64,000 nt of DNA. Source: Candidatus Latescibacterota bacterium. Its GTDB lineage: Bacteria > Latescibacterota > UBA2968 > UBA8231. The translations under genes and the position numbers were made by a program. This document shows, piece by piece, positions 46,993 to 60,605 of the stretch (positions are counted from its first letter, which is position 1; every line of letters begins with the position of its first letter). The DNA lies in the NCBI GenBank assembly GCA_964291625.2, contig OZ220089.1, positions 3,648,001 through 3,712,000 of the forward strand, in the 5' to 3' direction. The notes under the pieces are model-generated. The model saw nothing but the letters and a program-made list of their open reading frames with translations. It did not search any database and was not told the DNA's origin.

Positions 46993-47087
46993 CGTCCGCC
47001 GGCGGACACTGGTGTGCGGCAACGGTCACCCTCGGCGCCCGCCCCAGGCAGGCGCTCGGGAGAGCCGGGTCTGGCATGGAGGTTGCA
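46993..47087 (+). promoter_or_regulatory. sigma54 promoter with upstream tandem enhancer-like sites
   Basis: TGGCATG-gagg-TTGCA at 47072-47087; cGT-N10-ACA (palindrome gtccgccggcggac) at 46993-47008 and TGT-N10-TCA at 47013-47028. Confidence 0.75.
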
Positions 47088-47130
47088 ATGGTGAGGGCGA
47101 CGACTCACCACCTTCCGCAAGGAGGACATC

Positions 47131-47217
47131 ATGCAGACCTTCCGCCGCGCCGCCGAGATCGCAGCTCCCGTCGCCATCGTCGTGTGCTTCCTCGGCCCGT
47201 TCTTTGTCGGCGCCTGA
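47131..47217 (+). CDS. 28-aa hydrophobic peptide MQTFRRAAEIAAPVAIVVCFLGPFFVGA
   Basis: RBS aaggagg, sigma54 promoter upstream, clear paralogue at 60495; absent from the ORF track. Confidence 0.75.
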   Translation: MQTFRRAAEIAAPVAIVVCFLGPFFVGA

Positions 47218-47239
47218 TCAGCGAGGGGCTCGGCAACGC

Positions 47240-47815
47240 TCAGGCGGGGCCGAGCCCCAGTCGCCCCTCCTCGGGGCGCAGGGCCTGGATGACGAAGTCG
47301 ATGTGCTCGTCCAGGTCCACCCCGAACTCCTCGGCCCCCTGGCGGATCTCGCCGCGGTCGACGGCGCGGGCGAAGCCCCGGTCCTTGAGCTTCTTCCGCA
47401 CGCTGCGCACGCCCAGGTCGGCGAGGCTCTTCGACGGCCGCACGAGGGCGCAGGCCACGAGAAAGCCGCACAGCTCGTCCACGGCGAAGAGGGCCTTGGC
47501 CACGGGCGTGTCCCGCGGCACACCGCTGTACGTGGCGTGTCCGAGGATGGCCCGGCACAGGGGCTCGGGGTAGCCGCGCTCGCGCAGCAGGGCCACGCCG
47601 AAGGCCGGGTGCCCGTCGGTGGGGGAGCGCGCCTCGTTGGGGTGGGACTCGTAGTCGAAGTCGTGGAGCAGTCCCACGGTGGCCCAGGCCTCCTCGTCCT
47701 CCCCGAGGCGGCGGGCGCAGGCGCGCATGGCGGCCTCCACGGCGTACATGTGCCGGCGCAGGGGCTCCGACGCCGTGTGCTCGTGCATCAGGGCCAGGGC
47801 TTCGTCCCGGGTCAC
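47240..47815 (-). CDS. HD (HDIG) domain phosphohydrolase
   Basis: [34 protein letters not shown] overlap with msrAB. Confidence 0.88.
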
Positions 47816-48870
47816 GGGCTCTCTCCCGCCTGCGCCTGGGCCTCGAAGCGGGCGAGGTACTCGCCGTAGCCGGCCTCCTCCATCTCCTCCCGCGGCACGA
47901 AGCGCAGGGCCGCCGAGTTGATGCAGTAGCGCAGCCCCGTGGGCTCGGGTCCGTCGTCGAAGAGGTGGCCCAGGTGCGAGTCGCCGTGCTTGCTGCGCAC
48001 CTCGGTGCGCGGGTAGATCAGCTTGAAGTCCCTCTTCTCGACGATGTTCTCCGCCACCAGGGGGCGCGTGAAGCTCGGCCACCCGGTGCCCGAGACGTAC
48101 TTGTCGACGGAGAGGAAGAGGGGCTCGCCCGAGACGATGTCCACGTAGATCCCCTCCTTCTTGTTGTCCCAGTATTCGTTGCGGAAGGGCGGCTCGGTGC
48201 CCTCCTCCTGGGTGACCTCGTACTGGAGGCGGGTCAGGCGGCTGCGCAGCTCCTTCTCCGGCGGCTTGAGGTAACGCGTCTCGGTCCCGCCGCCGCCGCC
48301 CCAGTGGGCGCGGATGAACTGGTCGCGGCCGGAGCCGGAGCGGTAGCGCTTGTAGTGGGCCGGGTCCTTGCGGTAGAAGTCCTGGTGGTACTCCTCGGCC
48401 GGGTAGAACACGTCGGCGTCGCGCACCGGCGTGACGATGGGGTCCTCGAAGCGGCCCGAGGCCGCCAGGTCCGCCTTCGAGGCCTCGGCCAGCCGCCGCT
48501 GCTCCTCGTCGTGGACGAAGATCGCCGAGGTGTACTGATACCCGCGGTCGACGAAGGAGCCGCCGGCGTCGGTGGGGTCGAACTGCATCCAGTAGACCTC
48601 GAGGAGCCGCTCGTAGCTGATCGTCTCCGGGTCGAAGGTGACCTGCACCGCCTCCAGGTGCCCGGTCTTGCCCCCCGCGACCGCGCGGTACGTGGGGTTC
48701 ACCTCCGGACCGCCGATGTACCCGGAGATCACGGAGTGCACGCCCTCCAGCTTCTCGAAGGGCGGCTCCAGGCACCAGAAGCAGCCGCCGGCAAAGGTGG
48801 CCCGGGCCGCTTCCCCGGCGCCGGCGGCAGCCGGCAGCGCCGCCAGCAGGGCCGTGAAGATCCGTCTCAT
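47812..48870 (-). CDS. msrAB: Exported bifunctional peptide methionine sulfoxide reductase MsrA/MsrB
   Basis: Signal peptide; AGGCFWC and FYPAEEYHQ (MsrA); [27 protein letters not shown] (MsrB). Confidence 0.93.
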
Positions 48871-48892
48871 CGTATCGCCTCCTGTCGTGGTG

Positions 48893-49801
48893 TCATCCCT
48901 TCGCCGACGCCCGCGCCGCGGCGGATGTTCCGGGGTGCGGGACGGTGTTGAGGTCGAAGGCGTTCCAGTAGTACTGGTAGTTGCTCGACTTCCAGCCGGC
49001 GTAGATCTCGTCCCAGCCCATGCGGTTGAAGTGCGGCAGCAGCGATCCCTCGGTGACCGGCTGCGAGCCTCCCTGGTAGCGGTAGTCCACGGAGAGGCGG
49101 ATGCGGTCGGGACTGCGGTTCGGCAGGGCCTTGTGCACGGCGTGGCTGTGAAAGAAGAGGGCATCGCCGATCTCGAAGTCCCCCGCCGCCCAGCGCAGTC
49201 CCTGTGCCTCCAGGGGCGCCGTGTCGATGCCGACCTTGCCGGCGCCGAGGGCCGGCTCCACCGGGTACAGCCCGCCCTTGTGCGATCCCGCGAGCACCGA
49301 CAGTCCGCCCAGGTCTTGCGGACAGGCGCCGAGGGGGATCCACGCGGTATACGTTTCCGGCGTTCCCCGGATATGGATGAAATCCTGGTGCGCCGGCGTC
49401 GTGTGGCTGGCGTTCTCCGGGAACATGATTCGGCCGATGTTCCGCGGATGGACGAGCGTCTCCTCGCCGAAGAGCCTGTCGCACATCTCCAGGATCGCCG
49501 GGTGGTGGGCGAAGGCATGGAACGACTCCAGGCGCTGGAACTCGTCCAGCACCGGCCAGTAGCCGTCGTCGCCCTCGACGAAGGGGCCGCCGGCGCGCAG
49601 GCCCTCCATCAGTCCCTCGCCGCCCCGGGTCCATCCGTGGCGGTGGCAGATCTCCAGGAAACCGCGGCGCAGGCCGAGGACGGAATCGGCGTCGATCAGG
49701 CCGCGGAAGAAGAGGTAGCCGTCCCGGCGCGCACGGTCCTGCAGCCGGTCCGGATGTTCCAGCAGATCGTTGGAGACGGCGAAGGGTTCAGCTCTTGCCA
49801 A
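48893..49801 (-). CDS. PhyH family dioxygenase
   Basis: [31 protein letters not shown]. Confidence 0.88.
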
Positions 49802-49826
49802 GGGATGCTCCTCGCTTGCGGGCGGC

Positions 49827-60085: not shown

Positions 60086-60205
60086 TCAGGCCAGGCTCTC
60101 GAGCACCTGTCCAAGCCGCCTGAAGGCCATGGCGGCGGCCCAGCCGTAGCTCAGGACCACGGCGGCGGGCAGCACCAGGTGCTGAAACAGTTCCGTCCGT
60201 CCCAT
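60086..60205 (-). CDS. 39-aa hydrophobic peptide MGRTELFQHLVLPAAVVLSYGWAAAMAFRRLGQVLESLA
   Basis: RBS gaggagg; sigma54 promoter about 35 nt upstream; P13/A15/S19/Y20 align with the two other peptides. Confidence 0.68.
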   Translation of the reverse strand: MGRTELFQHLVLPAAVVLSYGWAAAMAFRRLGQVLESLA

Positions 60206-60240
60206 CGGTTCCCTCCTCTTCTGCGAGATGTCCGGCTCCG

Positions 60241-60256
60241 TGCAAGGCCCGTGCCA
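60241..60256 (-). promoter_or_regulatory. sigma54 promoter
   Basis: TGGCACG-ggcc-TTGCA on the minus strand, consensus -24/-12. Confidence 0.8.
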
Positions 60257-60313
60257 GTCTCTGGGGGGCACCGATCTCCAGCGGCGCCGGACGCGGTCCT
60301 CCAGGACCCCGGA

Positions 60314-60390
60314 GACTGCAGGCCTGCAGTCGTCCCTTGGGCCAGGCACGAGGTGTTCGACAGCGAACACCTCTGTCTCGAAACAGGTCA
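60314..60390. promoter_or_regulatory. Enhancer-like palindromes between divergent sigma54 promoters
   Basis: Perfect palindrome gactgcaggcctgcagtc (60314-60331); gaggTGTtcg-acag-cgaACAcctc (60350-60373); TGT-N11-TCA (60374-60390). Confidence 0.65.
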
Positions 60391-60433
60391 CCAGCGAGGT
60401 CCATCTCGAGCCTGCCACCCAGGGGAACCGGCC

Positions 60434-60449
60434 TGGCACGGTGGTTGCA
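60434..60449 (+). promoter_or_regulatory. sigma54 promoter
   Basis: TGGCACG-gtgg-TTGCA, consensus -24/-12. Confidence 0.82.
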
Positions 60450-60494
60450 AGAGCGAGGGCGTCAACTCACGACCCTTCGCCCGAGGAGGACGAC

Positions 60495-60605
60495 ATGAGG
60501 ACCCTTCGCATCGCCAGAGAGATCGCCGTTCCCGTGGCCATCGGTCTGTGCTTCGCCGGACTGTCGACCTTCGCCCACTACGCCACCGTCTCCCTCACCG
60601 TCTGA
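60495..60605 (+). CDS. 36-aa hydrophobic peptide MRTLRIAREIAVPVAIGLCFAGLSTFAHYATVSLTV
   Basis: RBS gaggagg, sigma54 promoter, paralogue of 47131-47217; followed by hairpin gcggcgg...ccgccgc. Confidence 0.78.
   Translation: MRTLRIAREIAVPVAIGLCFAGLSTFAHYATVSLTV

Follow-up and report, generated by a model that had tools for sequence, protein, structure and literature searches.

In this study, we describe a family of small hydrophobic peptides encoded in a 64,000-nucleotide stretch of DNA from Candidatus Latescibacterota bacterium (contig OZ220089.1, positions 3,648,001 to 3,712,000; hereafter, the window), and we conclude that the feature is real and well delimited: a previously undescribed family of genes for small membrane peptides, of narrow distribution, whose sigma-54 context is unusually explicit and which is linked to a MacB-type pump. 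Three members, pep1, pep2, and pep3, lie in the window, where the short open reading frames (ORFs) have the coordinates and the reading that an initial annotation of the DNA had given them (Table 1). That annotation counted three copies, which is right for the window; a tblastn match places a fourth copy, pep4, outside it (38 amino acids (aa); G000:C1:3370599-3370715, where G000 is the window's own genome). The family is defined by its sequence anatomy, its conservation among relatives, and a coherent regulon signature, which together bear out the early proposal of a dispersed, co-regulated sigma-54 regulon of small single-pass peptides: all 17 homologues keep the promoter, ribosome-binding site, ATG, and reading frame, and a common palindrome lies upstream.

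Each ORF in the window stands behind an exact TGGCAYG-N4-TTGCW site, in the place that the initial annotation gave for its promoter. The window holds three such sites against 0.02 expected, none of 100 shuffles gave three, and the entire genome (5.9 Mb, 69.5% GC, two contigs) contains only seven. Each of the three promoters is followed, after 35-45 nucleotides (nt), by a GGAGG-type ribosome-binding site and the ATG of a hydrophobic ORF of 28-39 codons. The leader common to the two plus-strand copies was correctly recognized at the outset and is also conserved in alignments of the relatives, while the start coordinate originally given to the feature, 46993, turns out to be the first base of an enhancer-like palindrome, CGTCCGCCGGCGGACA. 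In pep4, a TGGCACGGCGATTGCG site is found ~93 nt upstream, and the stop codon is followed by a hairpin with a U-run (z -4.3, folding against shuffles). The pep4 leader is ~93 nt long in G000 and in the related genome G002 (L021:1392-1500, L003:1393-1500), versus ~45 nt in the relatives G004, G006, and G007.

The evidence that these ORFs are genes comes from comparison of the 17 homologues in G000, G002, G004, G006, and G007 (five pep1, three pep2, five pep4, and four pep3). The -24/-12 site, the GGAGG site, the ATG, and the open frame are retained throughout (17/17), and a canonical GGAGGA site is present 5-8 nt ahead of the conserved ATG in every gene; homologues with a preserved frame, which the initial annotation had proposed to look for, are thus present in four sister species. 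Lengths are fixed, at 38 aa in all five pep4 genes and 39 aa in all four pep3 genes, with conserved stop positions. The GC content of third codon positions (GC3) is 0.81-0.96, versus 0.41-0.53 at second positions (GC2), in all 16 ORFs tested, which resembles the real genes of the window. The pep1 gene of G006 carries an in-frame 3-nt deletion, and the pep1 peptide is identical in G000, G002, and G004, whose genes differ pairwise at three, four, and five positions, all of them synonymous third positions. Among orthologues, identity is 79-100% in the palindrome, the promoter, the ribosome-binding site, and the first 22 codons, and 20-76% in the spacer between palindrome and promoter. The ratio of nonsynonymous to synonymous substitution rates (dN/dS), computed on concatenated genes per genome pair, is 0.31-0.67, versus 0.34-0.46 for the 545-aa gene adjoining pep4; for pep3 it is 0.15-0.50. 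The dN/dS test has little power because the genes span ~38 codons and dS is near 0.2, and we regard block-wise identity as the more telling guide to gene status. Judged from sequence, pep1-pep4 are probably translated into peptides.

The same units could be read as sigma-54-dependent small regulatory RNAs (sRNAs) with incidental ORFs, or as dual-function RNAs. They are short (~180 nt predicted) and dispersed in several copies, and every unit has a sigma-54 promoter, an enhancer, and a terminator to itself; paralogues share a conserved 5′ leader box, and the low dS of pep4 (0.035-0.22 versus 0.19-0.27 in the neighboring gene) might mean constraint at the nucleotide level. We nevertheless judge an RNA function very unlikely, given the GGAGGA site before a conserved ATG in all 17 genes, the GC3/GC2 periodicity in all 16 ORFs, the in-frame indel, and the conserved stops. 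The paralogue types are also more alike as peptides, with 71% identity over the first 22 codons, than as 3′ RNA, where identity is 30%; their leaders fold no better than shuffles (z -0.2 to -1.3), and the 64-kb window has no Rfam match at the gathering score.

The family has a narrow distribution. Among 41 related genomes, G000 included, strong family matches (E < 1e-7) are confined to G000 and four congeneric genomes (G002, G004, G006, and G007), that is, in 5 of 41; five further genomes of this genus (G001, G003, G005, G008, and G009; 76-96% complete) and 31 of other genera gave no match below E 0.09. A 34-aa hydrophobic ORF with a ribosome-binding site in G001 (L007:1501-1605) matches the family HMM weakly, at E 0.095; it has no clear sigma-54 promoter upstream, and the match may reflect either chance or a remote relationship. 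A pattern scan of one genome per species (185,579 species) found four loci, all in three of the peptide-bearing genomes, whose source metagenome-assembled genomes are labeled Gemmatimonadaceae or, for two of the loci, Latescibacterota. Twelve matches came from a profile search of 1.84 billion representative proteins; 11 of them read as family members and one as spurious. The family is therefore present in public gene calls, as 11 clusters, though unnamed and rare, and several of these members carry mis-called longer starts. A pattern scan of metagenome contigs gave 413 matches, none confirmed as a relative. As initially stated, the peptides belong to no recognizable family: Pfam and NCBIfam hold no family that matches them at E <= 10, the best score of pep4 in a Protein Atlas search (0.81) is at chance level, and a literature search returned nothing on the peptides or on sigma-54-driven small membrane peptides in Gemmatimonadota.

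Within the family, pep3 stands apart. Its homologues are found, among the 41 genomes, only in G000, G002, G006, and G007, and a hidden Markov model (HMM) of pep1, pep2, and pep4, run on the six-frame translation of the genome, recovers those three and misses pep3. Its original inclusion as a full member is thus qualified; the relation that survives is seen in an hhalign comparison of pep3 with the family (probability 85.9%, E 5e-6, columns 1-22) and in a match of the pep3 HMM to pep4 at E 0.009. These results make pep3 only a distant relative of pep1, pep2, and pep4, and nothing beyond an N-terminal pattern of 22 residues is common to all four. The residues first listed as shared, P13, A15, C/S19, and F/Y20, are correct in the alignments.

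The products are predicted to be single-pass membrane helices of 27-39 residues. All 16 peptides analyzed contain a hydrophobic 17-mer within residues 9-28 (mean Kyte-Doolittle hydropathy 1.45-2.54) and an N-terminal flank that is mostly basic, and an AlphaFold2 model of pep4 shows one helix over residues 2-37 (mean predicted local distance difference test, pLDDT, 91). In pep3, the topology may be inverted because its basic residues come after the helix. Prepilins are cleaved at motifs of the type G/xxxxEY or G/F-T-L-I-E. No Flp/Tad or type IV prepilin motif is present in the peptide alignments, nor is the GG motif of double-glycine-leader bacteriocins and precursors of ribosomally synthesized and post-translationally modified peptides, in agreement with the initial annotation, and no Sec-type cleavage motif is visible. 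A lipoprotein signal is ruled out, for C19 is not invariant and the residues preceding it do not fit a lipobox. A heterodimer of pep2 and pep3 was also considered and set aside, since G007 has pep3 with no pep2-type gene found and since, in G002, the two are on different contigs.

A shared upstream element ties the peptide genes to one another and to a putative exporter. Palindromes with the consensus yGTyCG-N4-CGrACA lie 63-97 nt upstream of the pep1, pep2, and pep3 promoters, and all four pep3 genes have one of this type. The strict palindrome occurs six times in the genome, three of them upstream of strong sigma-54 sites. A composite scan (at most one mismatch in the palindrome, a gap of 50-110 nt, and at most one mismatch in the promoter) found seven sites in the 5.9-Mb genome and none in the reversed genome. 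The seven precede pep1, pep2, pep3, a gene for a 70-aa helix-turn-helix (HTH) protein, two permeases, and an operon for an HlyD-type adaptor and an ATP-binding cassette (ABC) ATPase; the permeases, of 796 and 785 aa, are duplicated proteins with two MacB_PCD plus two FtsX domains (Pfam). In the relatives, the exact pattern gives nine sites in G002, G004, G006, and G007, which belong to pep1, pep2, and pep4 units and the HTH gene, with none in G001, G003, G005, G008, G009, and G011 (the last from another genus) and none in backwards controls.

The HTH gene (G000:C1:1136812-1137024, minus strand) encodes a stand-alone Fis-type protein of 63-71 aa and is preceded by two tandem palindromes and a sigma-54 promoter. 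Its conservation extends to G002, G006, and G007, and a second G007 copy (L025:1128-1319, plus strand) is directly upstream of a pep1-type gene.

The genome encodes one rpoN (Sigma54_DBD match, 9.9e-62) and has ~19 strong Sigma54_activat matches. Strong sigma-54 promoter matches also precede groES-like and Hsp20-like genes and two pspA genes (Table 1), which suggests that heat-shock and membrane-stress genes of this organism are under sigma-54 control. The pspA promoters (two in G000, one in G007) lack the palindrome and have their own upstream element, GGCGG..GCCGATTC; because this element differs, they probably answer to another activator. The best reading of the whole is that the peptides were recruited into an efflux or envelope-stress regulon.

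The candidate activator of the regulon is a 461-aa protein with a REC domain, a sigma-54 AAA+ domain, and an HTH_8 domain (G000:C1:2231601-2232986, minus strand). Its gene is divergent from the adaptor/ATPase operon, with palindrome and promoter in the common intergenic region in G000 and G007. Orthologues of 87-97% identity are found in the four other peptide-bearing genomes; these identities partly reflect the antisense adaptor gene, although the 461-aa activator proper lies within the matched region. In G001 and G009, the only matches are paralogues of at most 41% identity, and G003, G005, and G008 gave none at E <= 1e-100. A longer form of the activator, of 748 or 911 aa with a novel N-terminal domain, was ruled out by translation and Pfam, the "domain" being the antisense of the divergent adaptor gene. 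About 5 kb separate the G007 activator locus from a cluster that comprises the second HTH gene, the pep1-type gene, a sigma-54-driven pspA, and a TM2-domain gene. In G000, an AbiEii/AbiEi-like toxin-antitoxin pair is directly downstream of the activator gene (L039:6700-7714, minus strand). G011 has a 67% homologue of the activator, divergent from a permease-like gene behind a similar site (named from its N-terminal sequence alone, which has a MacB/FtsX-type look), and the family search detected no peptide there. Because G011 has the module without detectable peptides, the activator-pump module is probably the older part, to which the peptides were added within one lineage. From the arrangement of these sites, we infer that one NtrC-type activator controls the peptides through the palindrome.

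Small membrane proteins can also act on the sensor itself, as MgrB does on PhoQ. By analogy, the peptides might be feedback regulators that bind a membrane sensor kinase upstream of the activator, with the 70-aa HTH protein damping the response at the enhancer. The activator does have a receiver domain and no adjacent kinase, and of the eight promoter units assigned to the regulon (the seven composite sites plus pep4), five encode proteins no longer than 70 aa. Two tandem palindromes precede the HTH gene, whose product most closely resembles, within the genome, the C-terminal DNA-binding domains of activators; the best match is to the proposed cognate activator (35% over 40 aa, E 0.018, in a database of 19 proteins). 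This HTH similarity is weak, however; no kinase has been identified, and four different peptides for one sensor would be unusual. We therefore consider a feedback role quite unlikely.

The reading that we favor, with modest confidence, is that the peptides are the products of real single-pass membrane-peptide genes, made together with a MacB-type exporter under sigma-54 and acting on the pump or on a sensing pathway. The pep1, pep2, and pep4 genes would be self-contained units, each consisting of a palindrome, a spacer of ~63-97 nt, a -24/-12 promoter, a leader of ~45 nt, a GGAGGA site, the ORF, and a terminator hairpin; pep3 would have the same parts minus the hairpin. Transcription would require sigma-54 plus, in all probability, one NtrC-type response-regulator activator, and some signal would reach the receiver domain of this activator and induce the peptides and the exporter together. 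Co-production is suggested because the same signature precedes the permeases, the HTH gene, and the adaptor/ATPase operon. The peptides would then presumably stay in the inner membrane, where the conserved face P13-x-A15-xxx-[C/G/S]19-[F/Y]20 may make helix-helix contacts with the co-induced pump or sensing pathway, much as AcrZ acts on AcrB in Escherichia coli, our model for action on the pump. Confidence declines along this chain: it is highest for dependence on sigma-54 and an enhancer-binding protein, lower for translation into membrane helices, lower again for the activator named above, and lowest for action on the exporter or on signaling. Among the roles first suggested for the peptides, membrane-complex modulator is the best because of the link to the MacB-type exporter, whereas filament subunit found no support. 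A complex prediction of the 796-aa permease with the peptide alignment, run without controls, scored 0.01 and is no evidence either way.

A more specific and doubtful version holds that the peptides are the first dedicated micro-protein partners, or cargo, of a MacB-type (type VII ABC) exporter, either tuning its extraction of substrates from the membrane or being extracted themselves, and that a set of four paralogous transmembrane helices of 27-39 residues was added in one Gemmatimonadaceae lineage to an older activator and pump module. As cargo proper, the peptides would be leaderless hydrophobic signals, antimicrobials, or surfactants, and the co-made exporter would expel them and protect the producer, as MacB-family pumps do for enterotoxin STII, SDP, and AS-48. 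The regulon signature common to the peptides and all parts of the exporter fits such a role, as does the capacity of these pumps to handle peptides (PMC5985334). Families of secreted peptides, too, often consist of several paralogues that are alike at the N terminus (here over 22 residues) and diverge in their C-terminal tails; the sequencing runs that hold the sequence are, moreover, labeled as host-associated metagenome. Yet the uniform hydrophobicity of the peptides and their basic N-flank recall membrane anchors, not amphipathic toxins, and neither double-glycine nor Sec-type cleavage motifs are present in the alignments, nor are there processing or modification genes beside any copy. The known peptide substrates of MacB, according to PMC5985334, are disulfide-bonded periplasmic peptides, and G011 has the pump-activator module without detectable peptides. 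On balance, export as cargo is unlikely.

Positions 60000-60700 are contained, in part or in full, in two metatranscriptome runs and in a further run whose library type is unrecorded. A 183-nt contig of one RNA run, X2, covers 60462-60644 with one mismatch at a depth of 2.6, from ~2 nt after the predicted +1 (about 60460) to just past the first pep2 hairpin; contigs of this kind cannot show transcript ends, and DNA may be present. This contig, from a run with a word share of 0.13, is the sole RNA piece listed over the peptide loci, with no piece from the other RNA run, X1; the records of X1 and X2 label both as sponge metagenome. Neither the depth values of these two runs nor the gaps in their cover bear on expression. 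Transcription of the pep2 unit is thus weakly hinted at, and the contig is suggestive only.

Several observations count against the favored account of membrane peptides made with the exporter. The per-gene dN/dS is not uniformly low: the one pep2 pair gives 1.54, and the pep4 values span 0.32-1.56, half of the 10 pairs being at or above 1. An open frame alone proves little at 69.5% GC, where long frames readily stay open by chance. An insertion separates the half-sites of the pep4 palindrome in G000 by 22 nt, so that pep4 falls outside the count of seven composite sites, and the sequence upstream of pep4 in G002 shows one half-site only; in these two genomes, therefore, pep4 may not answer to the same activator. 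pep3 has no terminator hairpin (z +0.53), and no histidine kinase was found beside the activator gene. The RNA support consists of one low-depth contig from a library that can contain DNA. Finally, large same-strand ORFs also lie 3′ of pep2 in G002 and G006 (product not assigned); with such a gene behind it in G000, G002, and G006, pep2 may head a longer transcript.

Table 1. Peptide genes of the window with their regulatory elements, and other sigma-54 sites of the genome. Positions are those of the window unless a genome contig is named.
Feature	Position	Strand	Remarks
pep1 palindrome (upstream activating sequence) CGTCCGCCGGCGGACA	46993-47008	.	63 nt upstream of promoter; conserved in 5/5 pep1 orthologues
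pep1 sigma-54 -24/-12 promoter (TGGCATGGAGGTTGCA)	47072-47087	+	conserved in orthologues
pep1 leader	47088-47130	+	conserved GAGGGCG..ACTCAC box; AGGAGGA ribosome-binding site at 47120-47126
pep1 ORF	47131-47217	+	28 aa, hydrophobic single helix (predicted)
Hairpin 3′ of pep1	47221-47264	+	-36.5 kcal/mol, z -4.78; overlaps 3′ end of convergent HD-domain gene
pep3 ORF	60086-60205	-	39 aa, distant relative of pep1/pep2/pep4
pep3 sigma-54 -24/-12 promoter (TGGCACGGGCCTTGCA)	60241-60256	-	exact pattern match
Perfect palindrome TGTTCGACAGCGAACA	60354-60369	.	single copy between divergent promoters; 64 nt from pep2 promoter, 97 nt from pep3 promoter
pep2 sigma-54 -24/-12 promoter (TGGCACGGTGGTTGCA)	60434-60449	+	exact pattern match
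pep2 leader	60450-60494	+	conserved box; GAGGAGGA ribosome-binding site at 60483-60490
pep2 ORF	60495-60605	+	36 aa, hydrophobic single helix (predicted)
Two hairpins 3′ of pep2	60604-60658	+	-33.8 kcal/mol, z -3.41; without U-run
Sigma-54 sites before groES-like, Hsp20-like, and pspA genes	G000:C1 near 4728345, 3837961, 47683 (-); G000:C2 near 460985 (+)

The genes beside the peptide copies, which encode an aminotransferase, an HD-domain protein, PhyH, a TonB receptor, and unknowns, gave no functional clue. Between the aminotransferase gene and the pep1 palindrome lies a 64-aa hydrophobic ORF (window 46757-46951, minus strand) that has a ribosome-binding site, a GC3 of just 0.75, and no match in Pfam or NCBIfam; it is probably an insertion or spurious because, in G002 and G006, the palindrome directly follows the aminotransferase stop. 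On the same strand as pep2 and 200 nt downstream, a gene that runs past the window end (60807-63998, plus strand) encodes a large protein that looks secreted, matches Peptidase_M6 (immune inhibitor A) weakly, and contains a BNR repeat; this gene may be co-transcribed with pep2. Elsewhere in the genome (G000:C1:4028101-4028793), nine tandem units with an 81-nt period, whose translated repeats start MAAFLEAGPLAAPVA, gave chance tblastn matches.

Gene callers routinely overlook small membrane proteins, few of which have a known regulator or partner. The present family comes with a promoter, an enhancer site, a candidate activator, and an apparently co-induced MacB-type exporter, so its function is directly testable, and the locus is a concrete candidate for a small-protein modulator of MacB pumps. 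It also shows a way for a sigma-54 regulon to grow, namely by the addition of tiny self-contained genes. The narrow distribution limits the importance of the family.

Four known systems offer points of comparison. The Qrr1-5 sRNAs of Vibrio are controlled by LuxO and sigma-54, and GlmY is controlled by GlrR. As in those systems, several short monocistronic units are scattered over the genome, all of them with a sigma-54 promoter, a common activator site, and a terminator of their own; the peptide units differ in having a strong ribosome-binding site and a conserved ORF of coding-type composition, and in lacking an Rfam match. In the Psp response, the regulon of PspF and sigma-54 includes a small membrane protein, PspG. 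The likeness here is one of sigma-54-dependent small membrane proteins tied to membrane stress, and the pep1-type gene of G007 is directly upstream of a sigma-54-driven pspA; the three pspA promoters, however, have a different upstream element in place of the palindrome, and the peptides have no sequence relation to Psp proteins.

The putative pump resembles the type VII ABC exporters MacAB-TolC and YknWXYZ in its co-regulated HlyD-type adaptor, separate ABC ATPase, and MacB_PCD and FtsX permeases, but the permeases here are duplicated (785-796 aa) and encoded apart from the ATPase. The passages of PMC5985334 drawn on here describe no small-protein partner of a MacB pump and state that such modulators "cannot be excluded"; there, YknW provides a precedent for an extra membrane protein that acts on a MacB-like pump. 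YknW is larger than the peptides of this study and unrelated to them.

AcrZ of E. coli is co-induced with an efflux pump by the same regulator. It is a 49-aa inner-membrane protein that modulates the AcrAB-TolC pump, as set out in the relevant part of PMC5985334. Like AcrZ, each peptide would be a tiny single-pass membrane protein with its own transcript, encoded away from the pump genes and co-induced with the pump by one regulator. The two differ in that no sequence relation exists (no Pfam match), the pump is of MacB type (ABC/FtsX) rather than of the resistance-nodulation-division type, there are four paralogous peptides instead of one, control is by sigma-54 and an enhancer-binding protein, and contact with the pump is here a proposal. 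With these differences in mind, and drawing in part on general knowledge of these systems, we suggest that AcrZ with AcrAB may be the closest working analogy for the peptides, and the Qrr RNAs the closest regulatory one.

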